Origin: a virus
Lineage: Duplodnaviria; Heunggongvirae; Uroviricota; Caudoviricetes
Strand: one strand, 5' to 3'
Length of the DNA stretch: 38,688 nt
IMG/VR virus record: IMGVR_UViG_2703718837_000002
In this document: positions 10,719-31,142 of the stretch, in pieces
How positions within the stretch are numbered: the stretch's first letter is position 1
Layout of the letters: each line of letters opens with the position of its first letter
Made by a program: the position numbers and the translations under genes
Notes under the pieces: model-generated
Seen by the model: only the letters and a program-made list of their open reading frames with translations
Databases searched by the model: none
What the model was told of the DNA's origin: nothing

Positions 10719-10747
10719 TTGATCTCATCGTCGTTCAGGCTTATAGT
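10719..10747 (+). promoter_or_regulatory. sigma70 promoter candidate for the c4-icd-ant transcript (module 1)
   Basis: TTGATC-N17-TATAGT. Both hexamers and the spacing are conserved in module 2. A GATC lies within the -35 element. Confidence 0.55.
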
Positions 10748-10778
10748 TCCACCGTCGTAGCAAATTCTGCGACCAGGT

Positions 10779-10799
10779 TTGACAGCCTGAATACGAATG
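10779..10799 (+). promoter_or_regulatory. upstream c4-complementary site pair a1/b1 (module 1)
   Basis: TTGACAG-N7-ACGAATG. Both heptamers are exact complements of the c4 loop elements at 10904-10923. Confidence 0.55.
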
Positions 10800-10866
10800 C
10801 GGACAACCGCAGATTTCCGATATTGCGGTATTTTTGTGTCCGTAAACCACGTTACGCCCGAATTAT

Positions 10867-10943
10867 GGTGGGGCGTGATGGGGAGGCTTCGGCCTGCTGG
10901 TTTCATTCGTGCCAGTCTGTCAACCCTGTCACGTCCTGCCACC
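10867..10943 (+). ncRNA. c4: c4 antisense RNA, 77 nt (module 1)
   Basis: 77 nt. A closing stem (GGUGG...CCACC and CGUGA/UCACG), an AGGC-UUCG-GCCU hairpin, and a single-stranded CAUUCGU-GCCAGU-CUGUCAA element complementary to the sites flanking it. The size matches the published 77 nt c4 RNA. Confidence 0.8.
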
Positions 10944-10946
10944 TGT

Positions 10947-10985
10947 TTGACAGCGGGTCGCAGGTTGTTAAACCTACGAATGAGG
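10947..10985 (+). promoter_or_regulatory. c4 target a'/b' overlapping the icd ribosome binding site (module 1)
   Basis: TTGACAG-N22-ACGAATGAGG. The b' element abuts and overlaps the SD GAGG, 8 nt before the icd ATG. Confidence 0.65.
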
Positions 10986-10993
10986 CCGTAACT

Positions 10994-11215
10994 ATGGTTA
11001 ATGCCAATCCTTGCGCACGCCCTGAATTTATCTGGCGCTTTTACTCCTGCCAGAAACGTCACTATCACTTCGTAATTGCACCGACAGAAGATGAGGCCCG
11101 CTCTCTGCTTCCTGACGCTCCCTGCATTTTCTCTGCCCGCTTTTCCACTGATTCGCGCAACTCTCTCAGTTACTGGTGCCTCCCTGTTAACGCTTCTGCT
11201 CAGGAGGGACTATGA
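10994..11215 (+). CDS. icd: Icd-like 73-aa protein (module 1)
   Basis: 73 codons, the published size of P1 icd. Its stop overlaps the ant1 start (ATGA). Conserved in all three modules. Confidence 0.8.
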   Translation: MVNANPCARPEFIWRFYSCQKRHYHFVIAPTEDEARSLLPDAPCIFSARFSTDSRNSLSYWCLPVNASAQEGL

Positions 11216-12303
11216 GAACGTCATTAGTCACCCGTGAAGAAATGATTGAGGCAATTGAACAGCACACATCCTGTATCAGTACCAGGGATATACCGGGTGT
11301 TATTGCCAACTACTTCATGATCACCAAACAACTTTACCGGAGAAAGGACAAGAACGCGGTTCACCGCATTCTGTTGTCTGATATCCGCGAATACCTGCTC
11401 GAACAGGGTCGTCTTGATTATGCAACCGTAACCGCCGAAGCACGCAAGGAGGCACACAGGATGAAAGCAACTAATGTTAAATCAGAAAAAATTACCCTGC
11501 CTTCAGTTCAGGAATCCGAGCTGGTGGTTGTTCAGAATCAGTCTGATGAAATTCCCGTTCTGGAATGGCTGGGAGTGCGTGTCGTAACGACCGAAACTCT
11601 TGCTAGAGGGTATGGTACCGATGAAGCCAATATTCGTAAAAATTTGTCTCGCAACTCCGATCGCTTTGAAGAAGGCAAGCATTACTATCTCTTAACCGGT
11701 TCAAAGTTAAAGGAATTTAAAAGGCTAGTGACTATTAGTCACTTGGTTAGCAAATATACAAGTCAGGTAATTCTCTGGACAGAGCGCGGCGCTGCACGCA
11801 TGTCTAAGATCGTGGACACAAATGAAGCATGGGCATTCTTTGAAAAACTGGAAGACAGCTACTTCCGACAAAAAGAACAGCAACCGGTCTCAATTCCCCA
11901 GACGCTTCCAGAAGCTCTGCGCCTGGCTGCCGAGTTGGCAGAACAGAAAATGCAACTGGAACAACAGCTGGTGGCCGCAGCCCCTAAAGTCGATTTTGCC
12001 GACCGGGTATCAGTGGCTAAGGGGATCCTGATTGGAAATTTTGCAAAGGTTGTTGGACTTAAGCAAAACGCGCTGTTTGCCTGGTTACGGGAGAACGGCA
12101 TCCTGATTGCGTCCGGCGGACGTAAAAATGTACCGTTTCAGCAGTACATAAACGCCGGGTATTTCACGGTGAAAGAAGTGGTGCTGGATGATGAAGATGG
12201 CTACCAGATACGGTTGACGCCCCAGCTAACGGGGAAAGGCCAGCAGTGGCTGACGCGTAAACTGCTCGATGCAGGTTTATTAAAGCCTGTAGCGGCTGAG
12301 TGA
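11212..12303 (+). CDS. ant1: antirepressor Ant1 (363 aa), with in-frame Ant2 starting at 11461
   Basis: An ORF6N/KilA-N-like middle region (VRVVTTETLARGYG...RFEEGKHY) and a KilAC/ANT C-terminal domain. An internal ATG at codon 84 is preceded by AAGGAGG and gives 280 aa, consistent with P1 Ant1 (~42 kDa) and Ant2 (~32 kDa). Confidence 0.85.
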   Translation: MRTSLVTREEMIEAIEQHTSCISTRDIPGVIANYFMITKQLYRRKDKNAVHRILLSDIREYLLEQGRLDYATVTAEARKEAHRMKATNVKSEKITLPSVQESELVVVQNQSDEIPVLEWLGVRVVTTETLARGYGTDEANIRKNLSRNSDRFEEGKHYYLLTGSKLKEFKRLVTISHLVSKYTSQVILWTERGAARMSKIVDTNEAWAFFEKLEDSYFRQKEQQPVSIPQTLPEALRLAAELAEQKMQLEQQLVAAAPKVDFADRVSVAKGILIGNFAKVVGLKQNALFAWLRENGILIASGGRKNVPFQQYINAGYFTVKEVVLDDEDGYQIRLTPQLTGKGQQWLTRKLLDAGLLKPVAAE

Positions 12304-15175: not shown

Positions 15176-18100
15176 ATGAACAAGCTATCTATGGGGGTGT
15201 TTCGCTGTTCAAGTGTCAGCGAAATATTGAAATATATTAGGGCAATAACATTTCGCCGAGCGCCGATTAAATACGGCGTGGAAAAGGTGGAAGGCAAAAG
15301 CTATGACCGACTGCGCCGGGAGGCGAATCAGAAGGCGATAGATTTGCTTAATTCGCTGGTGGACGGCGCGACACTGACAGATGAACAGCGCCAGATCCTG
15401 GCTGGGTACACCGGTGAAGGCGGCATTGGCGGGTCCGTCTCCGAATATTACACACCAAAGCCGATCGCTGAAGGTGTCTGGGAGATCATGAAGCTCTACG
15501 GCGCGGACGTAGGTAACACTCTGGAACCATCGGCGGGAACCGGCGTTTTTAATGAGACAAAACCGGTTGGTACGGTGATGACCGCGACTGAGATCAGCAG
15601 TGTTTCCGGTCGTATAAACCAGTTGTTACACCCGGAAGACAGCGTACAGATTTCCCCGTTCGAACAGCTGGCTATAAGCACCCCTAACGATTCATTCGAC
15701 CATGTTGTGGGTAACGTTCCGTTCGGCGGTCGTGATAACACACGCAACATCGATAAGCCTTACGCAGAAGAAACGGACATGGGTTCTTACTTCATGCTCC
15801 GCATGCTGGACAAGATAAAGCCTGGCGGATTCATGTGTGTGATTGTGCCGCCGTCAATTGTTTCAGGTTCAAACATGAAGCGGTTACGCCTGCGCCTATC
15901 CCGTAAAGCTGAATTTCTTGGCGCTCACCGCTTGCCTACCGGTACTTTTGACGCAAACGGGACCAGTACAGTCGTTGATGTGGTGCTGATGCGCAAACAT
16001 CCGGCAGAGATGGCTGAGAAAATCCCCCTGGTGGATGAAAGCACTCTTGAATCGGCAAATGTGCTTTGGCCAACGTTTATTTCTGGCAAGTGGTTTGAAA
16101 AGGACGGCCGCCGGTTTGTTCATGGTACCCAGGAAAAGGGCTTCCAGGGGCGTATTGAGGTTCGTGCCGACGGGCAGATTGATAACCAGGCTCTTAAAGC
16201 GAAGCTGATTCATCGTTTCGAAAGTCGTATCGACTGGTCTTTGCTCGATATGGCTGAACCGTCACCGACCGCAGATGTTGTTGATGAAGGGGAAATGCGC
16301 CTGATTAATGGCGTATGGCAAAAATATGCTGGTGGTCGCTGGATTGAAGCTGATGCTGGTAAGGAGCTTAAGATTGATGCTGCCAGTTATGGCGCGGATA
16401 GCTGGGAGGCTCTTCAGCGTAACCTGACTACAACAGAAGGCCGTCTCGGTATGACATTTACCCAGATGGCAAATGTCCGCGATAAGTACACCACATCAAT
16501 CAGCGACGATATGGTGCAGCTGGTGGACTGGATTAACAGCCAGCCTGAAAAATACCGTGAACGCTTGTATCGCGGGGCGATGATTGGCCGGATGTTAATT
16601 GAATATCAGGATATGAAGGCCGCTGGGCATAGTGCTGAACAAATCGAACAGCAGCGCCTTTCTCTGGTGTCCCGTTTGCAGGCAGAGATTGACCGTTTTG
16701 GTAACCCCGGTCGCGGTCCGATAGCTAAATTATCGGGAAGCGGTGCGCGCGCCTGGTTTGCTTTCCGTGGTGCAATTAAGCTGGATGGCACTATTTCTGA
16801 CGAGCTGACAGGAAAGCTGGTTACGCATGATTCCAGCGCCAGTTATGACTCCACCAGCTATCAGGACACCCTGCGTTATCTCTATAGCGATCTTACCCGC
16901 GATCCAATCCAGCTCGATGATTTCCGCCTTGCGTTTACCGGCGAACTGCCAGCCAGTGATGAAGAGTTGCTTAATTTATTGGCCAGCACCCCTGGTATTG
17001 CGGTTTCACCGTATGGCGGGATTGTTCCGTTCGCCCGCGCCACCAGCGGCGACATTAACGAGATAGTGGCTCCAAAACAGGAATTCCTTGCCACACTCCC
17101 CGACGGTCCAGTAAAGAACAACGTCCTTAATCAGCTGGCAGCGATCGAAGAGAAGCGCATCAAGACGCCAGCAGAGAATATCCGCTTTAAGCTCAATAGC
17201 CGTTGGTTCGACCGCTCCGTCATTCTGGAGTTTTTGCAGGAAAACGGCTATCCGGATCTGCGCTATGTGCAGTCAGTGCAGCTGGAAGGCGACGAAATGG
17301 TTTCTGACACCTATCACGGTGGTGATGGTCTGTTCGTCGGACACCGATACGGTGTCGTCCAGCGCAAGGATAAAGAAACAGGAGAGATCCGCTACGAGTG
17401 GGACCGTAAATCAGGTGAAAACGCGACCGGGTTCCCGGCACAGCTGGAAAAGTATCTCAATGGTGCGCGTATCGGTGGCAAAGATAGCGCGACGGCGAAC
17501 GGCTACCGCGAGCAGATGGCACTGCTTGAGGACCAGTTCAATAAGTGGATCAAGACGCACGATCGCTACGATGAGCTGGTTGCCAAATACAACGATGTGT
17601 TCAATAGCAATATCCCGTATGAACACTCTGGCGATCCGCTTGGGTTGAAGGGATTAAGCGGTAAGCGCCAGCCATTTGATTACCAGAATAGCGAGGTGCG
17701 CCGACTGTCCGAAGATGGGCGCGGCATCCTGGGCTTCGGTACCGGGCTGGGTAAAACCACGACCGCGCTGGCGCTTGAGGCGTTCAACTATGAGAACGGT
17801 CGCTCCACCCGTACTGCTTATGTAGTGCCTAAATCAGTGCTGGAAAACTGGTATTACGAAGCAAAAGAGTTCCTGAGTGAAGAAGCCTTCAGTAACTACT
17901 TGTTCGTTGGACTGGATGTACTAATGGACGGCGATCAGATTCGCCAGGTTCCGGTGCTCGATGAGAACGGTAAACCTGTCCTTGGTGCTGATGGCACTCC
18001 ACTTATGCGCGATGCCCTTAAACTGGCAGATGAAGCCACTATCACGGCGCGTATGAACGCGATCCCGCACTCAAATTACCGTGCAGTCGTGTTTACCAAA

Positions 18101-21100
18101 GAACAATACGCCCGCATTCCGCTACGTGATGACACCGTAGATGAGCATGCACAGGATATGCTTTATGACTTCGTTGCTGCCGGGCGCGTAGCCAGCGCAA
18201 TGGACTCCGACTCCCACCGCAAAGAGGCCGCGCGTCGCCGGGTATTGTCGGAGTATTCAGATACCGGTACCGAAAAAGCAGAGAAGTATCCGTACTTTGA
18301 GGATATGGGCTTCGACAGCGTGATTGCTGACGAAGGCCACAACTACCGCAATAGCTATAAAAATGGTCGCGAAGCGTCACAGCTGGCCTATCTGCCCACC
18401 AGCGCGGTGGCGCAATCGGCGCGAGATATGGCAATCAAAAACGCGTACCTGATGAAAAAGAATGGTGGGCGTGGACCGGTTCTCCTGACTGCAACGCCAG
18501 TCGTTAACACCCCGATCGATGCATACAACATGCTTTCTCATGTTCTGCCGAAGGAATACTGGCAGAAGATGGGGATCTACGGTCCTGATGACTTCGTTAA
18601 ATTCTTCGGCAAGACCAGGCTGGAAACGGTACAGAAAATTAGCGGTGAAGTTGAAGAAAAAATGGCGCTGGTGGGCTTTGAAAACCTTGATGCGCTGCGC
18701 GGTATATTCCATCGCTGGGTAACGCTTAAAACGGCGGAAGACGTTAAGGATACCGTGGAGATCCCGGAGCTGGACGAACACCAGCAGGATGCACCACTTA
18801 CTGAAGAACAACTGGCGGCGTATGAAGAATTGCGTCAGCAGGCGGAAGCGGCGGCCAAAGCCAACAATGGCGTAACGACCTCGGTCAATGAAGACGGCGT
18901 GATTGAGCACGAGAAAGCCCGTCCGATCTTCTCAATAATCAGGGATATGGACCGCGTATGTACTGACATGGACCTGTACTATCGCCGGATCACCTATCGT
19001 TTCCTGCCGGAGTATGCCGATGCGGTGCAGCAGCTGGCGGACAGTTTGCCTAAACAAGCCACCAGCGAAGACGACGACAGTGATGATTCAATCACGCAGC
19101 AATCGCAATACTCCCTGATAGATAAGGGCGAGTTTATTCAGTTGCAGGTTCCGGAAGCGTTCGAGCAGGAAGTGAATAAGCGCCTGGCCAGGTTTGGCAT
19201 TGACGAACAGACCGTAACTCACCCCGTTACGCCCAAATACGCGAAGCTGATTGCCACGCTGAAGGAGTTTTTCCCGGAAGGTAAGCAAATCATCTTCACG
19301 GACGAAAAAACGCAGCACCAGAAGCTCAAGCGCATTATCTGCAATGCTCTTAACCTTGAACCTTCAAAGGTGGGGATCCTGAATGCTCAGACGGTTGCCG
19401 AGGCAGGTAAAACCGGTAAGAAACTGAAAGCGGTTAAACCGCCGAAAGAGTTACCGGATGAACCAACAGATGCACAGATAGCGAAATACAACGAGCAAAT
19501 GGCTCTGTATGACGCCTATATCGCGCAGCAAAATGAAATGTCGTTGGGCGGTCTGGAAAAGATTGCAGCCGACTTCCAGGAGGGCCGGACTCCGATCATC
19601 ATCTGCAACAAAAAGGCAGAGGTGGGTATCAACCTGCATCGAGGAACGACTGACATCCATCATCTGACGTTGCCGTGGACTCCAGCCAGTATCGCACAAC
19701 GTAACGGTCGCGGTGCCCGAGTTGGCTCCAACCGTGCAAGCGTTCGCGTTCACTACTACTGCGGCAAGGGTTCTTTCGATGAATACCGACTGAAGACGCT
19801 GAAGCGTAAAGCAGGCTGGATCTCCGATATCCTCCGTTCAGATAAGTCAGAAATGGAGAACGCCGACGCCAACGATATGATCGAAATGCAGATGTATACC
19901 GCTAAGGATGATGGCGAACGTCTGGCAATGATGCAGGTTCAAATGGATAAGGCGAAAGCCGCGCAACGCGCTCGCCAGAAAGAACAGGCTACTATCGACC
20001 TTCAGAACTACATCAAGGCGCAGCACGCAGCTGGCGAGGATGTGGAGGTACTTACCGCTGAATTAGAGCGAAGCAAAGCGGAACTTGAAAAGACCACCGC
20101 CGACGTCGACAAATTCAAACAAGCAGCAATGGCCAAAGCAGCTGATAACGCAGACTGGAAGGCACGTTGGGGGAGTGTCCATAACGCTGACCGTATGTTG
20201 TTAGCTCGATATCGCGCTTCGTTAAAAAATGCTATTCAACAGAAGGCTAATATCTCTCAAGCCATCTCCCGCTATGAGAAATTATTGAACCGTACCCAGA
20301 AGGCCGCGACGGATATCAAACGCCTGCGCCCGCTGGTGGAGGATGCAATAAATAAAGGCATTCTGGATGTTGATCCTGACCTGGTTAACCATGCGAGTGA
20401 GTTCCTTGTTATCGGCGATCGCTCATGGCGTGTAGGCCAATACTATGATTGTGCCGGTGATATCGTCCGCATTAAGTCTCTGGACTTCGACAGCCAGCGC
20501 GCAGACGTGGAGATCATCTTTACCTTCAAAGGCACAAAATCTGGTAACTGGGATGTGAAGACGCTGGATAAACAGGTGGATGTAACTCCCGATGAAGATG
20601 CTGTTATGCAGAAAATCAGTGGTGGCGTCTCCATCGCCGGGATTAACGACATCATTTCCTGTGACGATTTCTACCGTTTCCAGCAGCGCGGCATGATCAA
20701 AATCACTGACTCGTACGGCGTTCAGACTACAGAGTCAGGCTATAGCATTGATTTTGTTGGTACCTATACGGACCCACTGAAGCATGCGGTTTACCCGGAT
20801 CGCCGTGACGGCGCGCTGAAGTCGTCAATTGCAAAATGGGTGCTTGGTATGATGTCTGAAGGGAATAACCGCCAGGTCCGTTTGGCAGAAGTATTCCTGA
20901 CTGAACTGTTTGGCTCCAATTATGGCGATGTAATCGCGTCATATGGAGATACGCTATCCCCTGAAGCAATTCAGGAGAAAATAGCGGATGCGATCGCCAG
21001 AATGCCGGAGAAAACAAGCCAGGGGGCTACTCGTAACGGGGATTCTGAACTTGAGGTCACCAATGCCATTTTCGGTACCCATGAGTTCCGGGCGTCAGAT

Positions 21101-21943
21101 TATGAGATCACCACAGCACAGTTTGGCACCATTGGCATTTACAGCAATAAAGACGAGATCAAGCAGGCAATGGACGCAGCAAGCGCGCGCATCGCAGCAG
21201 AACGGGAAGCCAATCTGAATCATGCAGTCGCCGCGCTGACTCAATCGTGGGTAACAGCAATCAGGGAGGCCGCCACCACAGGGAAAATCACACCGGCAAT
21301 TGCGGATGTCGTAAACGACGGCTCTAAATTTATGGATGCCTATCAAATGGATGCGGTGCAGTTGCCATCAGCCTATGGCCAACTCAGCTATCGCATGACC
21401 TACAATCTGGTATCAATGTTTTCCGACCTTGCCATCCTTGGGCTGGTGGACCTTAACGAGGTTACGCCGGAATTGCTCAGCATTCGCAATAATCATGTGG
21501 AGATATTGCACAGAATTAACACGGTACTTGCCGGGCGCACCGATGAAGAAAAACAGGCAGACGCTGATCGGATAAACCTGGCCCTAGGCAACATCACGGA
21601 GGAAGAAATTGCCGCCAGAAACGAGAAACAAGAAGAGTTATCATCAATACAGGGTGATGCCACCAGCATAGCTCAGTCTCTTGGTCTGAATTATCGCGTA
21701 TCCACCGCCGACCTGAAGATGATGTACGCACCAAAATTCGCCGCTGGCGAGGTATTTGGGCTTCAGGAGGCGTCCGGCATGAAAGGCATTCTTTTCCGTG
21801 CGAAAGACGCAATCAAGGAAAAATTCGGCGCTCGCTGGCTGCCAGCGAAGGCGAAGAACAGCGATTTCCCAGGCAACTGGTGGATTATCGAGACAAAACA
21901 CAACGTGGCGGACGTTCTGGCCGTCATCCAACAATACGCATAA
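15176..21943 (+). CDS. darB: DarB, antirestriction virion protein (N6-adenine methyltransferase plus SF2 helicase fusion)
   Basis: 2255 aa, the size I recall for P1 DarB. It has an MTase motif (VGNVPFG) and helicase motifs GTGLGKTT, DEGH, LLTATPV and QRNGRGAR. Confidence 0.95.
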   Translation: MNKLSMGVFRCSSVSEILKYIRAITFRRAPIKYGVEKVEGKSYDRLRREANQKAIDLLNSLVDGATLTDEQRQILAGYTGEGGIGGSVSEYYTPKPIAEGVWEIMKLYGADVGNTLEPSAGTGVFNETKPVGTVMTATEISSVSGRINQLLHPEDSVQISPFEQLAISTPNDSFDHVVGNVPFGGRDNTRNIDKPYAEETDMGSYFMLRMLDKIKPGGFMCVIVPPSIVSGSNMKRLRLRLSRKAEFLGAHRLPTGTFDANGTSTVVDVVLMRKHPAEMAEKIPLVDESTLESANVLWPTFISGKWFEKDGRRFVHGTQEKGFQGRIEVRADGQIDNQALKAKLIHRFESRIDWSLLDMAEPSPTADVVDEGEMRLINGVWQKYAGGRWIEADAGKELKIDAASYGADSWEALQRNLTTTEGRLGMTFTQMANVRDKYTTSISDDMVQLVDWINSQPEKYRERLYRGAMIGRMLIEYQDMKAAGHSAEQIEQQRLSLVSRLQAEIDRFGNPGRGPIAKLSGSGARAWFAFRGAIKLDGTISDELTGKLVTHDSSASYDSTSYQDTLRYLYSDLTRDPIQLDDFRLAFTGELPASDEELLNLLASTPGIAVSPYGGIVPFARATSGDINEIVAPKQEFLATLPDGPVKNNVLNQLAAIEEKRIKTPAENIRFKLNSRWFDRSVILEFLQENGYPDLRYVQSVQLEGDEMVSDTYHGGDGLFVGHRYGVVQRKDKETGEIRYEWDRKSGENATGFPAQLEKYLNGARIGGKDSATANGYREQMALLEDQFNKWIKTHDRYDELVAKYNDVFNSNIPYEHSGDPLGLKGLSGKRQPFDYQNSEVRRLSEDGRGILGFGTGLGKTTTALALEAFNYENGRSTRTAYVVPKSVLENWYYEAKEFLSEEAFSNYLFVGLDVLMDGDQIRQVPVLDENGKPVLGADGTPLMRDALKLADEATITARMNAIPHSNYRAVVFTKEQYARIPLRDDTVDEHAQDMLYDFVAAGRVASAMDSDSHRKEAARRRVLSEYSDTGTEKAEKYPYFEDMGFDSVIADEGHNYRNSYKNGREASQLAYLPTSAVAQSARDMAIKNAYLMKKNGGRGPVLLTATPVVNTPIDAYNMLSHVLPKEYWQKMGIYGPDDFVKFFGKTRLETVQKISGEVEEKMALVGFENLDALRGIFHRWVTLKTAEDVKDTVEIPELDEHQQDAPLTEEQLAAYEELRQQAEAAAKANNGVTTSVNEDGVIEHEKARPIFSIIRDMDRVCTDMDLYYRRITYRFLPEYADAVQQLADSLPKQATSEDDDSDDSITQQSQYSLIDKGEFIQLQVPEAFEQEVNKRLARFGIDEQTVTHPVTPKYAKLIATLKEFFPEGKQIIFTDEKTQHQKLKRIICNALNLEPSKVGILNAQTVAEAGKTGKKLKAVKPPKELPDEPTDAQIAKYNEQMALYDAYIAQQNEMSLGGLEKIAADFQEGRTPIIICNKKAEVGINLHRGTTDIHHLTLPWTPASIAQRNGRGARVGSNRASVRVHYYCGKGSFDEYRLKTLKRKAGWISDILRSDKSEMENADANDMIEMQMYTAKDDGERLAMMQVQMDKAKAAQRARQKEQATIDLQNYIKAQHAAGEDVEVLTAELERSKAELEKTTADVDKFKQAAMAKAADNADWKARWGSVHNADRMLLARYRASLKNAIQQKANISQAISRYEKLLNRTQKAATDIKRLRPLVEDAINKGILDVDPDLVNHASEFLVIGDRSWRVGQYYDCAGDIVRIKSLDFDSQRADVEIIFTFKGTKSGNWDVKTLDKQVDVTPDEDAVMQKISGGVSIAGINDIISCDDFYRFQQRGMIKITDSYGVQTTESGYSIDFVGTYTDPLKHAVYPDRRDGALKSSIAKWVLGMMSEGNNRQVRLAEVFLTELFGSNYGDVIASYGDTLSPEAIQEKIADAIARMPEKTSQGATRNGDSELEVTNAIFGTHEFRASDYEITTAQFGTIGIYSNKDEIKQAMDAASARIAAEREANLNHAVAALTQSWVTAIREAATTGKITPAIADVVNDGSKFMDAYQMDAVQLPSAYGQLSYRMTYNLVSMFSDLAILGLVDLNEVTPELLSIRNNHVEILHRINTVLAGRTDEEKQADADRINLALGNITEEEIAARNEKQEELSSIQGDATSIAQSLGLNYRVSTADLKMMYAPKFAAGEVFGLQEASGMKGILFRAKDAIKEKFGARWLPAKAKNSDFPGNWWIIETKHNVADVLAVIQQYA

Positions 21944-21976
21944 CAGGAGCGCCCGGTTCGCCGGGCGTCGCATAAT

Positions 21977-22417
21977 ATGGCCACACTATCTGATACAATA
22001 AAACCGAATAAAACATATCTTGAGGCGGTACTCCGTACAGCGTTGTTAGGAAAGACAGAAGACGAATACGTTGATTTCTTCCTGTCAGGGCTACGCGGGC
22101 GATTACTGAAAAATCCCCGCCTGTACCGCAGCTATGGTCCATACTGGCCGGAAATTAAAAAATTATTACTGGAGCGCGGTTATGGTAATTTCGGTCGTCT
22201 CGTTGACCGTGACGTTCGCAAAATTTATCGTTATGACCGCCCGGCGCTAACACTCATAGCCGCGACGCTCTACAGCCAGGAGCGTTTTGATAATGGTCAG
22301 ATATACTCAGCCTGGCATTTACTGCCAGTGCCTGAAGAAGTTGACGACCAGGACTATGAGTTTGAGTCTTACGATTTGGAAGTTGAAGCCTTGGCACAGG
22401 CTGGAGAGAAAACTTGA
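21977..22417 (+). CDS. ulx: Ulx (upstream of lxc)
   Basis: 146 aa. Located between darB and lxc, as in P1. Confidence 0.7.
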   Translation: MATLSDTIKPNKTYLEAVLRTALLGKTEDEYVDFFLSGLRGRLLKNPRLYRSYGPYWPEIKKLLLERGYGNFGRLVDRDVRKIYRYDRPALTLIAATLYSQERFDNGQIYSAWHLLPVPEEVDDQDYEFESYDLEVEALAQAGEKT

Positions 22418-22662
22418 AAAAGCGATACTACACAGTAAAGCATGGGACGCTACGAGCATTACAAGAGTTTGCTGACAAGCATAACGTTGAGGTGCGCAGG
22501 GAAGGGGGAAGTAAAGCTCTGCGCATGTACCGTCCGGACGGGAAATGGCGTACGGTCGTCGATTTCAAAACTAACAGTGTTCCCCAAGGCGTCCGCGATC
22601 GGGCATTCGAAGAATGGGAGCAGATCATCATAGATAACGCATTGCTCCTTAATGCTGATTAA
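22414..22662 (+). CDS. lxc: Lxc (Bof), C1 corepressor
   Basis: 82 codons with a TTG start after GGAGAG, overlapping the ulx stop. This matches my recollection that bof/lxc is an 82-codon gene starting with TTG. Confidence 0.8.
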   Translation: MKKRYYTVKHGTLRALQEFADKHNVEVRREGGSKALRMYRPDGKWRTVVDFKTNSVPQGVRDRAFEEWEQIIIDNALLLNAD

Positions 22663-22710
22663 TGGTTTTGTTTCCCGGTATCGTATTATACCGGGAAATA
22701 TCTTTTTATA

Positions 22711-23109
22711 TTAACCCGCGGCTGCAATTAGTGCCGACCCAACCGCCAGTGTGGTGACAAGGCCTATAATGACGACTGTAGCTGTTACCCCACCTGCAAC
22801 AGCTGCTCCAGTCTTTGTTTTGGATAACTCTTTCTTTTCTAGAGAAATGATTTCACCCATAGGAATAGACTGGTTGTTAATACCATTGATATATTGTGGG
22901 GTAACGTTCGATACTGTCATTTCACCTTCGCTACCTGATTTTAACTTGTATTTAATTAGGTCACCAGCATATATCGGTGGCTCTGTTAAATAATAGGTAC
23001 TTCTTTCAAGGTTTTTTTGCTTTATGTTAACTCCTTGATAAGACTGACATCCACATAACACAAGTGATAAAATTAGCGTCATCAGTAAATTTCTTTTATT
23101 TTTTATCAT
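22711..23109 (-). CDS. lipoprotein with a C-terminal Gly/Ala-rich hydrophobic segment
   Basis: ATG at 23109 after AAGGAGAAGGAG. The signal peptide carries a lipobox (LVLCGC). The C-terminal segment is TGAAVAGGVTATVVIIGLVTTLAVGSALIAAAG. The gene is AT-rich relative to its flanks. Confidence 0.75.
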   Translation of the reverse strand: MIKNKRNLLMTLILSLVLCGCQSYQGVNIKQKNLERSTYYLTEPPIYAGDLIKYKLKSGSEGEMTVSNVTPQYINGINNQSIPMGEIISLEKKELSKTKTGAAVAGGVTATVVIIGLVTTLAVGSALIAAAG

Positions 23110-23243
23110 TGTCTGCACTCCTTCTCCTTTTCTTTGTATAGCTAAAACAAATCATTTATTCTTGTCAAATAGTTTTTAGTTTGAGAGTGAGGTTTACGTG
23201 ACGATGCTCTAAAAGTTGCAGATAGCGGTAAAGATAATTTTAT

Positions 23244-23885
23244 TTACAATATGTTACCTTTTCCGGTAAGTATACCTTGCGGTACTTTTCTTTCCCCCAT
23301 AAGTTGAGTGGCATGAATGATATTAATAAATGACATTAGTTGTGATGAACTCTGATTCACATTTATCTTTCCAGCCATTGCCCTGATGTAGTCAGCGCTG
23401 GCAACGTTGTTGTATTCCGTTGCGAAGCAGCATAACAACGTCAGAACGTGCTCTGTCGTTATTTCACTCCAGTTGATGTTGAAAAATTCATCGCCTTTTT
23501 TGTCGTGTTCGGAATCGAAGATGCTTTGGTGGAGGATATATTTGCCGGATTCCTTGCGCGGTAACTTTATCGCTTTCTGGCGTTCCAATTCCTTGTAAAT
23601 CTGCATTGCTTCAATCAGTACCGGTCTGCCGTTCATGAAGGGATCACGCAACCTTACACGCTGGCCAACTCGACCGGTAATAAAGCTGTTTTCCTCTTCC
23701 ACCAGCACGATAAAACCCTTTTCCTCTTTTTCTCGCAATTCGCGCAGCAGCTGGAGTTCCATATCGCGGCGGCGCTCAGGGTAGCTGGTCCGCTCAGCCA
23801 TTATCAGCTCATTGTTGATCCATGCAGCAGTCATTGACGCCGGTTTGCCGACGCTCATTGAAACAACGCATATTTTCTTATCCAT
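23244..23885 (-). CDS. hypothetical protein (213 aa), possibly the P1 mat counterpart by position
   Basis: ATG at 23885 with AGGGG 5 nt upstream is preferred over GTG at 23912. A late-promoter box lies upstream. No motif recognised, and identity to Mat could not be verified. Confidence 0.7.
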   Translation of the reverse strand: MDKKICVVSMSVGKPASMTAAWINNELIMAERTSYPERRRDMELQLLRELREKEEKGFIVLVEEENSFITGRVGQRVRLRDPFMNGRPVLIEAMQIYKELERQKAIKLPRKESGKYILHQSIFDSEHDKKGDEFFNINWSEITTEHVLTLLCCFATEYNNVASADYIRAMAGKINVNQSSSQLMSFINIIHATQLMGERKVPQGILTGKGNIL

Positions 23886-24014
23886 AGCGCCCCTACAAAA
23901 AAGAAAAGCCACCAGCGGCGGCTTAGCAAAACAACTGAAGGTAGCGCCCGGTACTCAGACTGTGCCGTCCATGGAATATTTGAAAAGGGATCCATCCGTA
24001 CCGGGCGTGTGATG

Positions 24015-24033
24015 ATTCTGACTCAAGTCACTT
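24015..24033 (-). promoter_or_regulatory. Lpa-type late promoter candidate for orf213
   Basis: The minus strand reads AAGTGACTT, a perfect 9-bp palindrome (extendable to CAAGTGACTTG), then N4, then CAGAAT. Confidence 0.45.
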
Positions 24034-24066
24034 GTCAGTTGTCAATTATTTCAGATTAAAAATAAT

Positions 24067-24083
24067 ATATTTATTAGTGCATA
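24067..24083 (-). promoter_or_regulatory. variant C1 operator-like site
   Basis: The minus strand reads TATGCACTAATAAATAT. It shares ATGCACTAATAAAT with the site at 28477-28493 upstream of c1. Confidence 0.35.
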
Positions 24084-24144
24084 CAATTAAAACAATAAGT
24101 GTGCACATTGCAACCTCGGAGAGGAAACATTCAACCAGATTGTT

Positions 24145-24161
24145 ATTGCTCTAATAAATTT
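24145..24161 (+). promoter_or_regulatory. C1 operator, left end of immI-like module 2
   Basis: A perfect ATTGCTCTAATAAATTT. The inverted partner seen in module 1 is degenerate here (TTATTGAAACAA). Confidence 0.85.
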
Positions 24162-24202
24162 GATTTATTGAAACAAATAAACTACTATTGGACGCCAGAC
24201 TA

Positions 24203-24231
24203 TTGATCTTCCTGTTGTTCAGGCTTATAGT
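24203..24231 (+). promoter_or_regulatory. sigma70 promoter candidate for c4-icd-ant (module 2)
   Basis: TTGATC-N17-TATAGT, with hexamers identical to module 1. Confidence 0.55.
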
Positions 24232-24262
24232 TCCTACGTCATAGCAAATTCTGCGACCGGGT

Positions 24263-24283
24263 TTAGCAGCCTGAATGTACATG
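24263..24283 (+). promoter_or_regulatory. upstream c4-complementary site pair a1/b1 (module 2)
   Basis: TTAGCAG-N7-GTACATG, exact complements of the c4 elements at 24389-24408. Confidence 0.55.
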
Positions 24284-24351
24284 CGGACAACCGCAGATTT
24301 CCGATATTGCGGTATTTTTATGTCCGTAAAACCGCGTTACGCCCGAATTAT

Positions 24352-24428
24352 GGTGGGGCGTGATGGGGAGGCTTCGGCCTGCTGGTTTCATGTACGCCAG
24401 TCTGCTAACCCCGTCACGTCCTGCCACC
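24352..24428 (+). ncRNA. c4: c4 antisense RNA, 77 nt (module 2, different specificity)
   Basis: The same scaffold as module 1. The recognition elements read CAUGUAC and CUGCUAA instead of CAUUCGU and CUGUCAA. Confidence 0.8.
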
Positions 24429-24431
24429 TGT

Positions 24432-24470
24432 TTAGCAGCGGGTAGCAGGTTGTTAAACCTGTACATGAGG
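24432..24470 (+). promoter_or_regulatory. c4 target a'/b' overlapping the icd ribosome binding site (module 2)
   Basis: TTAGCAG-N22-GTACATGAGG, with the SD GAGG 8 nt before the icd ATG. Confidence 0.65.
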
Positions 24471-24478
24471 CCGTAACT

Positions 24479-24700
24479 ATGGTTAATGCCAATCCTTGCG
24501 CACGCCCTGAATTTATCTGGCGCTTCTATTCTTGTCAAAAACGTCACTATCACTTCGTTATCGCACCAACAGAAGATGAGGCACGTTCTCAGCTTCCGGA
24601 TGCTCCCTGCATTTTCTCCGCCCGCTTTTCTACCGATTCGCGCAATTCTCTCAGTTACTGGTGCCTCCCTGTTAACGCTTCGGCTCAGGAGGGGCTATGA
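24479..24700 (+). CDS. icd: Icd-like 73-aa protein (module 2)
   Basis: 73 codons, differing from the module 1 copy at one residue (L/Q). ATGA overlap with ant1. Confidence 0.8.
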   Translation: MVNANPCARPEFIWRFYSCQKRHYHFVIAPTEDEARSQLPDAPCIFSARFSTDSRNSLSYWCLPVNASAQEGL

Positions 24701-25809
24701 GAACGTCATTAGTCACCCGTGAAGAGATGATCGAGGCAATTGAACAGCACACTGCCTGTATCAGTACCAGGGATATACCAGGTGTTATTGCCAACTACTT
24801 CATGATCACCAAACAACTTTACCGGAGAAAGGACAAGAACGCGGTTCACCGCATTCTGCTAACCGATATCCGTGAATACCTGCTCGAACAGGGTCATCTG
24901 AATTATGCAACCGTCGCAGCCGAAGCACGCAAGGAGGCACACAGAATGAAAGCAACTAACGTTAAATCAGAAAAAATTCATGCACCTTCAGTTCAGGAAT
25001 CAGAGCTGGTGGTTGTTCAGAATCAGCCTGATGAAATTCCCGTTCTGGAATGGCAGGGAGTACGTGTCGTGACAACCGAAACTCTTGCTAGAGGGTATGG
25101 GACCGAAACTAATAACATCAAAGTTAACTATACGCGTAATGCTGATCGCTTTGAGGAAGGTAAACATTACTTTCTACTAACTGGTTCAAAATTAAAAGAA
25201 TTGAAGGACAAGGTTACTCAAAGTAACTTAGTCGCACCGCGAGCAAAGCACCTCACTCTCTGGACGGAACGCGGCGCAGCCCGCCACGCTAAAATGATCG
25301 AAACCGATCAGGCATGGGCATTCTTTGAAAAACTGGAAGACAGCTACTTCCGACAAAAAGAACAGCAACCGGTTGCAATCCCCCAGACGCTTCCAGAAGC
25401 CCTGCGCCTGGCTGCCGAACTGGCTGAACAAAAGCAACTTCTGGAACAGAAAGCCCACCAGCTAAATCAGCAGCTGGTGGCCGCAGCCCCCAAAGTCGAT
25501 TTTGCCGACCGGGTATCAGTGGCCAAGGGGATCCTGATTGGGAATTTTGCAAAGGTTGTTGGACTTAAGCAAAACGCGCTGTTTGCCTGGTTACGGGAGA
25601 ACGGCATCCTGATAGCGTCCGGCGGACGTAAAAATGTGCCGTTCCAGCAATACATCAACGCCGGGTATTTTTCTGTGAAAGAAGTGGTGCTGGATGATGA
25701 AGATGGCTATCAGATACGACTGACGCCCCAGTTAACGGGGAAAGGCCAGCAGTGGTTGACGCGTAAACTGCTCGATGCTGGCTTGTTAAAACCGGTGGCG
25801 GCTGAGTGA
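24697..25809 (+). CDS. ant1: antirepressor Ant1 (370 aa), with in-frame Ant2 starting at 24946
   Basis: The same architecture as module 1. The central ~65 aa are divergent, and there is a 7-aa insertion in the coiled-coil linker. Confidence 0.85.
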   Translation: MRTSLVTREEMIEAIEQHTACISTRDIPGVIANYFMITKQLYRRKDKNAVHRILLTDIREYLLEQGHLNYATVAAEARKEAHRMKATNVKSEKIHAPSVQESELVVVQNQPDEIPVLEWQGVRVVTTETLARGYGTETNNIKVNYTRNADRFEEGKHYFLLTGSKLKELKDKVTQSNLVAPRAKHLTLWTERGAARHAKMIETDQAWAFFEKLEDSYFRQKEQQPVAIPQTLPEALRLAAELAEQKQLLEQKAHQLNQQLVAAAPKVDFADRVSVAKGILIGNFAKVVGLKQNALFAWLRENGILIASGGRKNVPFQQYINAGYFSVKEVVLDDEDGYQIRLTPQLTGKGQQWLTRKLLDAGLLKPVAAE

Positions 25810-25817
25810 TTAAAAAA

Positions 25818-26015: not shown

Positions 26016-26042
26016 AGCCTGGCTCCTTGCCAGGCTTTTTTT
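26016..26042 (+). terminator. intrinsic terminator (+ strand) abutting the cra stop
   Basis: AGCCTGGC-TCCTT-GCCAGGCT followed by T7. Confidence 0.65.
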
Positions 26043-26352
26043 ATTTCATCATGGAAGCTGTTAACGCTTTGGACCTTGCTGAACTGATTGAAAGGACATT
26101 GTTAACCTTACCCAAGAGTTCGCCAAACTCAGACATCACTTTAGCAAAACCACGCCGTGCTTCTTCCTCGGTGGCATTCATCACGAAATGTTCAGCACTA
26201 CGCATACTTTTGACAGGGAACGCAACGGATATTGAGTCAATATCAGGCATTCTATCGCTCAGCTTTACAGTGACAATGACGGCTGGCGACTGAATATTAG
26301 TGCTTACAGACAGCACTACATATTTTACGTCGATGTTGAAATCCTTTCTCAT
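26041..26352 (-). CDS. cra: Cra (cre-associated) protein
   Basis: A 103 aa ORF 51 bp downstream of cre on the same strand, as in P1. Confidence 0.65.
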   Translation of the reverse strand: MRKDFNIDVKYVVLSVSTNIQSPAVIVTVKLSDRMPDIDSISVAFPVKSMRSAEHFVMNATEEEARRGFAKVMSEFGELLGKVNNVLSISSARSKALTASMMK

Positions 26353-26402: not shown

Positions 26403-27434
26403 CTAATCGCCATCTTCCAGCAGGCGCACCATTGCCCCTGTTTCACTATCCAGGTTACGGATATAGTTCATGACAATATTTACGTTGGTCCAGCCACCAG
26501 CTTGCATGATCTCCGGTATTGAAACTCCGGCGCGGGCCATATCTCGCGCGGCTCCGACACGGGCACTGTGTCCAGACCAGGCCAGGTACCTCTGGCCAGA
26601 GTCATCCTTAGCCCCGTAAATCAATCGGTGAATTGCTTCAAAAATCCCTTCCAGGGCGCGAGTTGATAGCTGGCTGGTGGATGATGGCGCGGCAACACCA
26701 TTTTTTCTGACCCGGCAAAACAGGTAGTTATTCGGATCATCAGCTACACCAGAGACAGAAATCCATCGCTCGACCAGTTTAGTTACCCCCAGGCTAAGTG
26801 CCTTCTCTACACCTGCGGTGCTAACCAGCGTTTTCGTTCTGCCAATATGGATTAACATTCTCCCACCGTCAGTACGTGAGATATCTTTAACCCTGATCCT
26901 GGAAATTTCGGCTATACGTAACAGGGTGTTATAAGCAATCCCCAGAAATGCCAGATTACGTATATCCTGGCAGCGATCGCTATTTTCCATGAGTGAACGA
27001 ACCTGGTCGAAATCAGTGCGTTCGAACGCTAGTGCCTGTTTTGCACGTTCACCGGCATCAACGTTTTCTTTTCGGATCCGCCGCATGACCAGTGAAACAG
27101 CATTGCTGTCACTTGGTCGTGGCAGCCCGGACCGACGATGAAGCATGTTTAGCTGGCCCAAATGTTGCTGGATAGTTTTCACAGCCAGACCACGCGCCTG
27201 AAGATATAGAAGGTAATCGCGAACATCTTCAGGTTCTGCGGGAAACCATTTCCGGTTATTCAACTTGCACCATGCCGCCCACGACCGGCAAACGGACAGA
27301 AGCATTTTCCAGGTATGCTCAGAAAACGCCTGGCGATCCCTGAACATGTCCATCAGATTCTTGCGAGCCTCATCACTCGTTGCATCGACCGGTAATGCAG
27401 GCAAATTTTGGTGTACGGTCAGTAAATTGGACAT
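26403..27434 (-). CDS. cre: Cre tyrosine recombinase
   Basis: 343 aa beginning MSNLLTVHQNLPALPVDATSDE and ending RLLEDGD. It differs from the P1 Cre sequence as I recall it at only a few positions. Confidence 0.99.
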   Translation of the reverse strand: MSNLLTVHQNLPALPVDATSDEARKNLMDMFRDRQAFSEHTWKMLLSVCRSWAAWCKLNNRKWFPAEPEDVRDYLLYLQARGLAVKTIQQHLGQLNMLHRRSGLPRPSDSNAVSLVMRRIRKENVDAGERAKQALAFERTDFDQVRSLMENSDRCQDIRNLAFLGIAYNTLLRIAEISRIRVKDISRTDGGRMLIHIGRTKTLVSTAGVEKALSLGVTKLVERWISVSGVADDPNNYLFCRVRKNGVAAPSSTSQLSTRALEGIFEAIHRLIYGAKDDSGQRYLAWSGHSARVGAARDMARAGVSIPEIMQAGGWTNVNIVMNYIRNLDSETGAMVRLLEDGD

Positions 27435-27441
27435 TTAACAC

Positions 27442-27663
27442 TCAGATAATGGTTTTAAGTAAAGTGTACAGGATCGGCTCTGCCTTTACCTGTTTATGGT
27501 TCTCGTCATAGAAACGCCAGCGACCGCGCGTGCGTTCTATTTTCTCTTCACCGCGCGATAATGACAGTTGACAACTATCACGATCAAACCCTTTTGCCCG
27601 CCAGTAACCACGGTTTTTCTCAAGCTCAATATGAGTGGACACTTTAGCAGCTGAATATCCCAT
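27442..27663 (-). CDS. 73-aa ORF immediately upstream of cre
   Basis: Strong SD GAGGTG 5 nt before the ATG. The stop lies 7 nt before the cre ATG. Function unknown. Confidence 0.6.
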   Translation of the reverse strand: MGYSAAKVSTHIELEKNRGYWRAKGFDRDSCQLSLSRGEEKIERTRGRWRFYDENHKQVKAEPILYTLLKTII

Positions 27664-29471: not shown

Positions 29472-30584
29472 TTATTCAGCCGCCACCGGTTTTAACAAGC
29501 CAGCATCGAGCAGTTTACGCGTCAACCACTGCTGGCCTTTACCCGTTAATTGGGGCGTCAGCCGTATCTGGTAGCCATTTTCATCATCCAGCACCACTTC
29601 TTTCACCGTGAAATACCCCGCGTTGATGTACTGCTGGAACGGCACATTTTTACGTCCACCGGACGCTATCAGGATGCCGTTCTCCCGTAACCAGACAAAC
29701 AGCGCGTTTTGCTTAAGTCCAACAACCTTTGCAAAATTCCCAATCAGGATCCCTTTAGCTACTGATACCCGGTCGGCAAAATCGACTTTAGGAGCGGCGG
29801 CCACCAGCTGCTGATTTAGCTGGTGGGCTTTCTGTTCCAGAAGTTGCTTTTGTTCAGCCAGCTCGGCAGCCAGACGCAGGGCTTCTGGAAGCGTCTGGGG
29901 GATTGCGATCGGTTGCTGTTCTTTTTGTCGGAAGTAGTTGTCTTCCAGTTTTTCAAAGAATGCCCATGCTTCATTTGTGTCCACGATCTTAGACATGCGT
30001 GCAGCGCCGCGCTCTGTCCAGAGTGTAAGGCTTCTGGCGTTCTTACCAACAGAGTAACTTCCGGTTACTCTGTTCTTAAATTCTCTTAATTTTAAACCAG
30101 TTAGAAGAAAGTAATGCTTACCTTCTTCAAAGCGGTCAAGGTTGCGAGACAAATTGTTGCGAATATTGGCTTCATCGACCCCATACCCTCTAGCAAGAGT
30201 TTCGGTTGTCACGACACGTACTCCCTGCCATTCCAGAACGGGAATTTCATCCGGCTGATTCTGAACAACCACCAGCTCTGATTCCTGAACTGAAGGTGCA
30301 TAAATTTTTTCTGATTTAACGTTAGTTGCTTTCATTCTGTGTGCCTCCTTGCGTGCTTCGGCTGCGACGGTTGCGTAATTCAGATGACCCTGTTCGAGCA
30401 GGTATTCACGGATATCGGTTAGCAGAATGCGGTGAACCGCGTGTTTGTCCTTTCTCCGGTAAAGTTGTTTGGTGATCATGAAGTAGTTGGCAATAACGCC
30501 CGGTATATCCTTGGTACTGATACAGGCAGTGTGCTGTTCAATTGCCTCGATCATCTCTTCACGGGTGACTAATGACGTTCTCAT
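29472..30584 (-). CDS. ant1: antirepressor Ant1 (370 aa), with in-frame Ant2 starting at 30335 (module 3)
   Basis: The same architecture as modules 1 and 2. A third variant of the central region. AAGGAGG precedes the internal ATG. Confidence 0.85.
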   Translation of the reverse strand: MRTSLVTREEMIEAIEQHTACISTKDIPGVIANYFMITKQLYRRKDKHAVHRILLTDIREYLLEQGHLNYATVAAEARKEAHRMKATNVKSEKIYAPSVQESELVVVQNQPDEIPVLEWQGVRVVTTETLARGYGVDEANIRNNLSRNLDRFEEGKHYFLLTGLKLREFKNRVTGSYSVGKNARSLTLWTERGAARMSKIVDTNEAWAFFEKLEDNYFRQKEQQPIAIPQTLPEALRLAAELAEQKQLLEQKAHQLNQQLVAAAPKVDFADRVSVAKGILIGNFAKVVGLKQNALFVWLRENGILIASGGRKNVPFQQYINAGYFTVKEVVLDDENGYQIRLTPQLTGKGQQWLTRKLLDAGLLKPVAAE

Positions 30585-30802
30585 AGTCCCTCCTGAGCAG
30601 AAGCGTTAACAGGGAGGCACCAGTAACTGAGAGAGTTGCGCGAATCAGTGGAAAAGCGGGCAGAGAAAATGCAGGGAGCGTCAGGAAGCTGAGAACGGGC
30701 CTCATCTTCTGTCGGTGCAATAACGAAGTGATAGTGACGTTTCTGGCAGGAATAGAAGCGCCAGATGAATTCAGGATGAGTTGGGGTAGGGACAGTAGCC
30801 AT
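30581..30802 (-). CDS. icd: Icd-like 73-aa protein (module 3, variant N-terminus)
   Basis: 73 codons. The first 9 residues differ (MATVPTPTH versus MVNANPCAR) and the rest is essentially identical. ATGA overlap with ant1. Confidence 0.75.
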   Translation of the reverse strand: MATVPTPTHPEFIWRFYSCQKRHYHFVIAPTEDEARSQLPDAPCIFSARFSTDSRNSLSYWCLPVNASAQEGL

Positions 30803-30810
30803 AATGGCAG

Positions 30811-30852
30811 CCTCCTTTGACTAAGTTAAGGAGCTACCGCGTGAGGTCTCAA
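30811..30852 (-). promoter_or_regulatory. target a'/b' overlapping the icd ribosome binding site (module 3)
   Basis: The minus strand reads TTGAGAC-N24-GTCAAAGGAGG. Both elements complement the loop of the RNA at 30860-30938. The SD GGAGG is included. Confidence 0.6.
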
Positions 30853-30859
30853 TCTCAAT

Positions 30860-30938
30860 GGCGGTAGCACTGACTGGGTTGAGACTACCGGCGTCAAAGG
30901 GAACCGGCCTGCCTTTCGGCAGCCCAGCCAGCACTACC
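30860..30938 (-). ncRNA. c4-analogous antisense RNA on an unrelated scaffold (module 3)
   Basis: About 76-79 nt. A 13-bp closing stem (GGUAGUGCUGGCU / AGUCAGUGCUACC, including G-U pairs), a CUGCC-GAAA-GGCAG hairpin, and the single-stranded elements CCCUUUGAC and GUCUCAA. Confidence 0.65.
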
Positions 30939-30985
30939 ATTGATTTCGGAGCTAAACGCTACGTATGGCTGTGCGATGGCATGAC

Positions 30986-31011
30986 ACAAAAAAAAGACGC
31001 TTTCGGCGTCT
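30986..31011 (-). terminator. intrinsic terminator inside the module 3 leader, between the decoy site and the RNA gene
   Basis: The minus strand reads AGACGC-CGAAA-GCGTCT followed by T8. Confidence 0.55.
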
Positions 31012-31017
31012 GTGTCG

Positions 31018-31042
31018 CCTTTGACATTATTCGGGGTCTCAA
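31018..31042 (-). promoter_or_regulatory. upstream complementary site pair a1/b1 (module 3)
   Basis: The minus strand reads TTGAGAC-N10-GTCAAAGG. Confidence 0.5.
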
Positions 31043-31142
31043 TCCCGGCACCCGTTTTAATGAGGTGCCTGATAAGCATAAACCGAAAATGCCTCAAGGC
31101 GCAAGAGGTCAGGTTCAATGTAACATCGGCAGTTAAAAAACA

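Follow-up and report, generated by a model that had tools for sequence, protein, structure and literature searches.

What occupies the interval between lxc and mat in a P1-like phage-plasmid that lacks the type III restriction–modification (R-M) genes mod and res, and what might that DNA do for its carrier? We asked this of a 38,688-nucleotide stretch of caudoviricete DNA (IMG/VR record IMGVR_UViG_2703718837_000002; "the window" always means this whole stretch), which is a segment of a P1-like phage-plasmid in reversed orientation relative to P1 coordinates. An initial annotation, made from the sequence alone, had described an AT-rich island that replaced ref and the EcoP1I genes, carrying a small lipoprotein gene and a 213-aa open reading frame (ORF) coding for an unknown protein, and had regarded the locus as a variable defence hotspot. 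All the sequence features that it listed were found, each at the position given for it. The picture that emerges from our comparisons is that the locus holds a cargo gene that is new and uncharacterised, beside an ordinary mat, in a variable hotspot of defence type that was already known.

A low-GC cassette in a known variable slot

The extent of the foreign DNA was defined by BLASTN comparison with P1. Homology extends, at 97.8% identity, to position 22662, the stop codon of lxc (22414-22662, plus strand; 82 aa, named after the P1 annotation), which forms the conserved left flank; it restarts at 23370, within the 3′ end of mat, continues up to 24082, the end of the operator Omat, and restarts again at 25812. 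The 707 bp from 22663 to 23369 occupy the place of P1 mod, res and IS5 plus the final 126 nt of mat, and the segment 24083-25811 occupies the place of P1 ref. The absence of mod/res and ref from the window was correctly noticed before. Breakpoints of the 707-bp cassette were set by comparison with P1, Ro157c2YLVW and Escherichia albertii plasmids.

With 36.1% GC, against a window mean of 48.9% (standard deviation of 3.3% for 707-bp windows), the cassette is the lowest-GC 707-bp stretch of the window, and the equally low windows (0.19% of positions) all overlap it; the AT-richness ascribed to the lipoprotein island is real. Its parts are a hairpin, the gene for the lipoprotein, a spacer of 134 bp and a mat 3′ end specific to this cassette. 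The hairpin (22669-22700, plus strand), found by a terminator scan, is cassette-specific and has a 13-bp stem followed by a T-run, which looks like a putative lxc terminator. The spacer between mat and the lipoprotein gene (23110-23243, minus strand), located from the sequence and the promoter and terminator scans, is AT-rich (32.8% GC). No P1-type operator or late-promoter box was found inside the cassette, both having been searched for.

The same place varies in other P1-like elements. In all compared relatives, sequences become variable at the lxc stop codon or a few bases beyond, and in the relatives examined the right end of the variable region falls at the same point inside mat. Eight different slot states exist among them: the slot is empty (L012), or holds mod-res (the EcoP1I type III R-M system, in P1), an HTH protein with a hypothetical protein (L001), a GNAT protein (L022), a PIN protein (L023, matching PADLOC family PDC-S34), a DUF2971 protein (L024, PDC-S31), a RelA/SpoT protein of the CapRel type (L025 and SJ46; PDC-S33, E = 7e-87) or the lipoprotein (the window and L011); the HTH, GNAT and lipoprotein cargos have no PADLOC hit. 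All slot cargos have a GC content of 33-39%. The CapRel type has been demonstrated to be an anti-phage system (PMC9712102), and type III R-M, CapRel and other systems were reported on P1-like elements, including those of E. albertii, in a large survey (bioRxiv 10.1101/2025.09.12.675607). These alternative cassettes bear out the proposal of a variable site with defence-type cargo. The hotspot itself is not new, having been published as the "res-mod" region ("Region 1", PMC9603915) in a list of eight regions of P1-like phage-plasmids that are highly variable and low in GC.

The hairpin that follows lxc is GC-rich and different in each variant, including the empty site (window, L012, L022, L023, L024 and L025); therefore, the terminator moves with the cassette and not with lxc.

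Taken together, we are confident that the locus, where the darB-ulx-lxc operon and mat converge, is the published "res-mod" variable region, in which low-GC cargo cassettes are exchanged by recombination with breakpoints at the lxc stop codon and in the last ~41 codons of mat. At the same high confidence, the window holds the cassette typical of E. albertii, with its own post-lxc hairpin, lipoprotein gene and Mat tail; Mat, LPmat and Omat are ordinary, the absence of mod/res is common and the replacement of ref was a separate event.

Independent variation of the cassette, mod-res and ref

The word "replaced", as used in the initial annotation for the loss of both ref and res/mod to one AT-rich island, does not describe what is seen in relatives. 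About 748 PLSDB plasmids have the lxc-mat backbone and no more than 66 carry a P1-type res (≥90% identity); most P1-like plasmids lack mod/res. The lipoprotein gene and mod-res occur together in five relatives (L003, L013, L017, L019 and L021). The E. albertii plasmid pEA15_2 (L003) reads lxc-mod-res-lipoprotein-mat and pEA40_1 (L013) reads mod-res-IS481-lipoprotein-mat, while p2RM9976 (L011) reads lxc-lipoprotein-mat-ref; among the six contigs shown with an identical lipoprotein, three have mod-res and three do not. Since the lipoprotein gene coexists with mod-res or with ref in relatives, a cassette that takes the place of mod/res is ruled out, and the combinations observed indicate that the cassette, mod-res and the ref/immI-like alternatives assort separately, as three independent polymorphisms.

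Some traces of how mod-res may come and go are visible. In pEA15_2, the last ~100 bp of lxc occur as direct repeats on both sides of mod-res (about 751-850 and about 5900-5999), and the lxc 3′ end of the window (22562-22662) is closer to the copy downstream of res in that plasmid than to the P1-type copy. Recombination between lxc repeats would be a simple route for the gain or loss of mod-res, consistent with this arrangement.

A further observation concerns the left side of the slot. Relatives with both mod-res and the lipoprotein gene (L003, 1-850; L017; L019; L021) lack the ~7 kb of darB and ulx, and lxc comes almost immediately after the portal gene; darB-ulx are kept in relatives devoid of mod-res, as in the window (15320-22385). 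Type III R-M and the DarB/Ulx anti-restriction genes appear inversely associated in this set, although P1 itself has both.

An ordinary Mat with a cassette-linked tail

The 213-aa ORF (mat, 23244-23885, minus strand) is, by its sequence, ordinary P1 Mat, the maturation control protein, with the usual LPmat and Omat controls. It is identical to P1 Mat at 194/218 positions (89%, E = 1e-149, BLASTP) and matches PHROG 1837 (E = 7e-108), and the location of mat on the ref/c8/cre side is that of P1. As a novel protein it is ruled out. The initial annotation had named two findings that would jointly undo its reading, an ordinary Mat and a lipoprotein that is a conserved core gene of P1; the first is what we find, and the second is not, since the lipoprotein gene is absent from phage records and occurs in 24 of about 748 P1-like plasmids, as detailed below.

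The late-promoter box and the operator upstream of mat are likewise present and align with P1 LPmat and Omat. LPmat (24015-24033, minus strand) has its −10 element at 24015-24020 and the −22 box AAGTGACTT at 24025-24033, which corresponds position for position to P1 LPmat; the box is identical to that of P1 and is its sole exact copy in the window. The "variant operator" of the initial annotation is Omat, the C1 operator controlling mat (about 24066-24083, plus strand, from P1 annotation and alignment), where P1 homology stops, with the breakpoint at 24082. The mat leader, which separates LPmat from the ATG at 23885, contains a terminator-like hairpin that is conserved in P1 (23906-23924, minus strand).

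Two differences from P1 Mat are found. The first is at the C-terminus: residues 1-172 are about 99% identical to P1 Mat, but the last ~41 residues (about 172-213; 23244-23369, 126 nt) are a divergent allele linked to the cassette, so that codons 1 to about 172 belong to the backbone and 23244-23369 is a cassette-linked variable tail. In an alignment of ten Mat proteins from ten P1-like elements, residues 1-170 are nearly invariant and the tail is hypervariable, covarying with the type of cargo that adjoins it; positions S181, N188, I190, V201-P202, G204, L206-T207-G208 and N211 are conserved within the tail. The second is at the N-terminus: P1 Mat and the window Mat both have 213 aa counted from the common ATG, but the N-terminal extension of the 250-aa form annotated in P1 is not kept in the window, because of a 1-bp indel upstream of this ATG. 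The indel (a C-run of 4 against 5 in P1) falls in 23886-23924 of the window, which is annotated as coding in the P1 record. It suggests that the true start of Mat may be the downstream ATG, giving 213 aa.

The lipoprotein gene and its distribution

The lipoprotein ORF (22711-23118, minus strand) encodes 135 aa from a GTG codon; the ATG at 23109, preceded by the Shine–Dalgarno sequence AAGGAGAAGGAG 9 nt upstream, gives 132 aa (22711-23109), and RefSeq annotates the same 399-nt gene in relatives. Neither at the DNA nor at the protein level was the gene found in 50,697 phage records (tblastn: nothing at E < 2), and no match covering the cassette was present in 5,426 complete E. coli genomes. Among the P1-like plasmids of PLSDB, the gene occurs in 24 of about 748, all 24 from E. 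albertii. The exact lipoprotein is indexed in 80 blocks of an assembly collection, and the six places examined were all P1-like and adjacent to mat.

Lipoprotein alleles differ mostly by synonymous changes, with a synonymous divergence (dS) of 0.09-0.16 and a ratio of nonsynonymous to synonymous divergence (dN/dS) of 0.03-0.12, and the ORF is intact in all copies examined. To judge from this substitution pattern, it is a functional coding gene under strong purifying selection.

A predicted doubly anchored lipoprotein

The architecture described by the initial annotation, a 132-aa lipoprotein with a lipobox and a C-terminal Gly/Ala-rich hydrophobic segment, is present as described. In the predicted protein, a signal peptide with the lipobox LCG/C (Cys21) is followed by a β-domain (residues 23-94) and, at the C-terminus, by a Gly/Ala-rich hydrophobic helix (about 97-131). 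Its N-terminus, including TLILSLVLCGC, conforms to a PROSITE PS51257-type rule (basic n-region, hydrophobic h-region, lipobox [LVI..][..][AGS]C, Cys at 15-35) by Cys21 and by K3, K5 and R6 in the n-region. Residues 100-132 reach Kyte–Doolittle values of 1.9-2.4 and are 62% Gly/Ala/Ser/Thr. A single-sequence AlphaFold2 (AF2) model was poor (predicted local distance difference test, pLDDT, of 56) and was superseded by an alignment-based model (pLDDT 89), in which a compact Sm/SH3-like β-barrel begins 2 residues past the lipid anchor and stops 2-3 residues before the helix. Lysines border the periplasmic side of this helix, and there is no basic cytoplasmic tail beyond it. The residue at +2 is Gln, and Gln at this position is no inner-membrane retention signal under the +2 rule of E. 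coli.

A word-indexed search returned only five 90% clusters of the family, and an exhaustive HMMER search yielded 58 representatives, nearly all of 110-165 aa. Three of these, the large proteins P0009, P0041 and P0046, are SpaA/DUF7507 repeat adhesins with multiple β-domain "hits" and were treated as repeat-driven false positives. Members are 25-55% identical and share a lipoprotein signal, a short β-domain, an E-K/R-K-E-x-S-x-x-K-T motif and a Gly/Ala-rich hydrophobic C-terminus devoid of a tail. Across 40 members, Cys21, GD49-50, G59 and K99-T100 are conserved, the lipobox Cys in ≥90% of the 40 homologues, mostly as L-S/T-G-C.

Database searches placed the family nowhere. The lipoprotein has no match in Pfam or NCBIfam (Pfam on 40 family members gave scattered noise only), no PADLOC-DB 2.0 family at E ≤ 1, nothing below E = 0.05 in a PDB sequence-profile search, and PHROG matches at the level of the signal peptide only; by fold, there is no BFVD match at E ≤ 0.001, and PDB folds returned only the generic Sm/SH3 barrel.

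The distant members of the family occur singly on chromosomes, with no phage genes around them (e.g., in Yokenella, between transporters, and in Thalassomonas), and gene-neighbourhood analysis found no recurrent gene partner around them. Two relatives come from Escherichia itself. A second E. albertii member, P0010 (L007-L009; 6001-6408 in L007), is 43% identical and is adjacent to genes for a DUF535 protein, a lipid A acyltransferase, a glycosyltransferase and a polysaccharide deacetylase; an insertion sequence (IS) fragment is close by. An E. coli homologue, P0005 (L004, 5807-6223), is 55-59% identical and lies just downstream of a gene for a 1376-aa AIDA-like autotransporter with IS flanks.

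What the lipoprotein may do

We hypothesize that the protein would be exported by its lipoprotein signal peptide and lipidated at Cys21, and that the C-terminal Gly/Ala-rich helix would serve as a second anchor. Because the barrel is only 2-3 residues from each anchor, both most likely sit in one membrane, and the barrel would face the periplasm. The membrane in question is probably the inner one, since a transmembrane helix should block extraction by Lol. The gene may be expressed by read-through of the mat transcript (Pmat/LPmat) or by a weak promoter that belongs to it alone. The minus-strand scan showed no terminator separating mat from the lipoprotein gene; therefore, transcripts started at Pmat, which C1 controls, and at the late LPmat may read through.

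As to function, our best guess, held tentatively, is that the lipoprotein is an exclusion or defence factor acting at the envelope, which hinders the entry of competing phages or other elements. We favor it because the slot elsewhere carries type III R-M, CapRel and PADLOC candidate defence genes. Its action would be closer to that of inner-membrane superinfection-exclusion proteins than to that of outer-membrane receptor blockers such as Cor and Llp.

Several points weigh against exclusion. The assignment is guilt by association, and the GNAT and HTH cargos of the same slot have no PADLOC hit either. No homology to known defence or exclusion proteins was found in PADLOC, PHROGs, BFVD, PDB or by tblastn against the 50,697 phages. 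The chromosomal, non-phage contexts of distant members are more in keeping with a general envelope protein than with one dedicated to anti-phage action. The predicted C-terminal helix is atypical as a stop-transfer anchor, given its lysines and the missing basic tail. Finally, a promoter scan revealed no convincing sigma-70 promoter upstream of the gene, so that expression in the lysogen is putative; the spacer has a perfect −35 element, TTGACA, at 23168-23163, without a usable −10.

An alternative that is possible, and nearly as likely as exclusion, is a host-envelope or fitness factor: a lysogenic-conversion gene taken from a chromosomal family of small lipoproteins, which could, for example, help the host to tolerate stress, to resist serum or colicins, or to colonise the avian gut. 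It agrees with relatives that are chromosomal singletons beside transporters, porins or regulators (Yokenella, Thalassomonas and other contigs), with the accessory, virulence-type regions that harbor the Escherichia paralogues P0010 and P0005, and with the confinement of the cassette to E. albertii plasmids, which suggests a host-specific benefit. On the other hand, the slot is enriched in defence-type cargo, and PHROGs and Pfam searches gave no similarity to Bor, Iss or TraT.

The exclusion hypothesis has a wider form, which we regard as doubtful: the lipoprotein could be the founder of a so far unrecognised class of factors, each made by a single gene, that act at the envelope against phages or in exclusion; it would be doubly anchored, have an Sm/SH3-like periplasmic barrel and have been recruited by the P1 defence hotspot from a chromosomal lipoprotein family. 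If so, the slot would be a usable discovery site for defence genes that are not cytoplasmic.

The same architecture also recalls a unimolecular spanin (u-spanin), and a u-spanin-like or other late lysis accessory protein, co-transcribed with mat from LPmat and bridging or perturbing the envelope at lysis, has to be considered. A u-spanin is defined by an outer-membrane lipoprotein signal together with a transmembrane domain at the C-terminus, and the families known are extremely diverse (PMC6139136). The window lipoprotein conforms to this definition and resembles gp11 of phage T1 in size and architecture; its gene comes downstream of mat on the same strand, the scan showing no terminator in between, and there are weak PHROG matches to "Rz-like spanin" (E = 0.02-0.1). 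We nevertheless consider this explanation improbable. The PHROG matches, which span residues 7-30 and 8-71, and an hhalign comparison with gp11, the only u-spanin directly compared (25% probability), are limited to the signal peptide. The gene is located outside the lysis cassette, most of the family is chromosomal and outside prophages, and no basic cytoplasmic tail follows the helix, unlike in gp11. A barrel separated by 2-3 residues from both anchors would not span the periplasm unless unfolded. Moreover, P1 already has a two-component spanin, listed as the overlapped i-/o-spanin pair gp064 (PMC6139136 supplement); this holds for P1, and the spanin gene lies outside the window.

A neutral passenger hitch-hiking with the Mat-tail allele, with no current function, would agree with the failure of Pfam, NCBIfam and PADLOC searches to assign homology or function and with the lack of a clear promoter, but is very improbable in view of a dN/dS of 0.03-0.12 at a dS of about 0.1-0.16, of an ORF intact in every examined copy and of an architecture conserved at 25-55% identity.

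Envelope-level exclusion remains our preferred, if tentative, reading. If the lipoprotein excludes phages or plasmids, an envelope-level mechanism is added to the hotspot and an unannotated family gains its first function; if it does not, the cassette is routine mosaicism in a known variable region. The cargo is linked to a single host species, E. albertii; this emerging enteropathogen commonly carries P1-like plasmids.

Surrounding genes and the immI-like modules

On the left of the slot, the plus strand carries darB (15176-21943), ulx (21977-22417) and lxc. On the right, beyond mat and the module that follows it, come c8 (26041-26352), cre (26403-27434) and cra (27442-27663), all on the minus strand. 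The order annotated in P1 is lxc-mod-res-mat-ref-c8-cre-cra. The initial annotation had set the interval "between lxc and cra", which is right for its lxc side; on the other side it is bounded by c8 and cre, and not by cra.

The segment at the P1 ref position (24083-25811, plus strand) is the second immI-like module of the window and is not part of the lipoprotein cassette. It contains a consensus C1 operator (24145-24161), an a1b1 element (24225-24277), a C4 RNA (24346-24431), an icd-like ORF (24479-24700) and ant, coding for the Ant protein (24697-25809). The immI-like module that the initial annotation had placed after the 213-aa ORF is thereby corroborated, by Rfam for the C4 RNA and the a1b1 element, and by the Ant protein that comes next. 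The module is also found in E. coli and E. albertii relatives.

In one E. coli P1-like plasmid (L024, 3908-4708), a gene for a metallo-β-lactamase (MBL)-fold hydrolase lies between mat and the icd-ant module; therefore, the mat-c8 interval is a second cargo site.

The window has three c4-icd-ant modules altogether, at 10741-12303 (plus strand), 24145-25809 (plus strand) and 29472-31068 (minus strand). Rfam places their C4 RNAs at 10861-10946, 24346-24431 and 30857-30944, and each is followed by an Ant-like ORF of 363-370 aa. The third sits between c1 and pacB, a site that is empty in the E. albertii plasmids L013 and L018.

Comparison with known systems

The initial annotation had likened the lipoprotein to Cor (phi80/N15) and Llp (T5). 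They have in common that each is a small phage-borne lipoprotein encoded by an accessory gene. However, the window lipoprotein is roughly twice as large and carries a second membrane anchor, at its C-terminus, which is absent in Cor and Llp, and no similarity to either was found in PHROGs, BFVD, PDB or by tblastn against all phage records (E ≥ 2). The analogy has neither sequence nor fold in its favor, and the second anchor sets the protein apart. There is also no cognate receptor logic, as P1 adsorbs to lipopolysaccharide and not to FhuA or another outer-membrane protein.

T1 gp11 (133 aa) shares with the window lipoprotein the lipoprotein signal, a β-rich periplasmic part, the C-terminal hydrophobic anchor and the lack of a periplasmic Cys. 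It differs in its lysis-cassette setting, where the window lipoprotein has lxc and mat as neighbours, in its basic C-terminal tail, and in its extended strands, where a compact barrel is predicted here.

A further comparison is at the level of the locus. With "Region 1 (res-mod)", the site shares its position, low GC, cassette-type replacement and mostly defence-type cargo; it differs in that the cargo of the window is a single membrane lipoprotein, outside all listed defence families. A membrane lipoprotein, and not a cytoplasmic enzyme, is unusual for this slot. More broadly, the lxc-mat slot is similar in behavior to the hotspots for defence genes in P2/P4 and lambdoid prophages, with EcoP1I in P1 and CapRel in SJ46; therefore, its uncharacterised cargo, this lipoprotein gene included, is a reasonable shortlist for new defence or exclusion genes.

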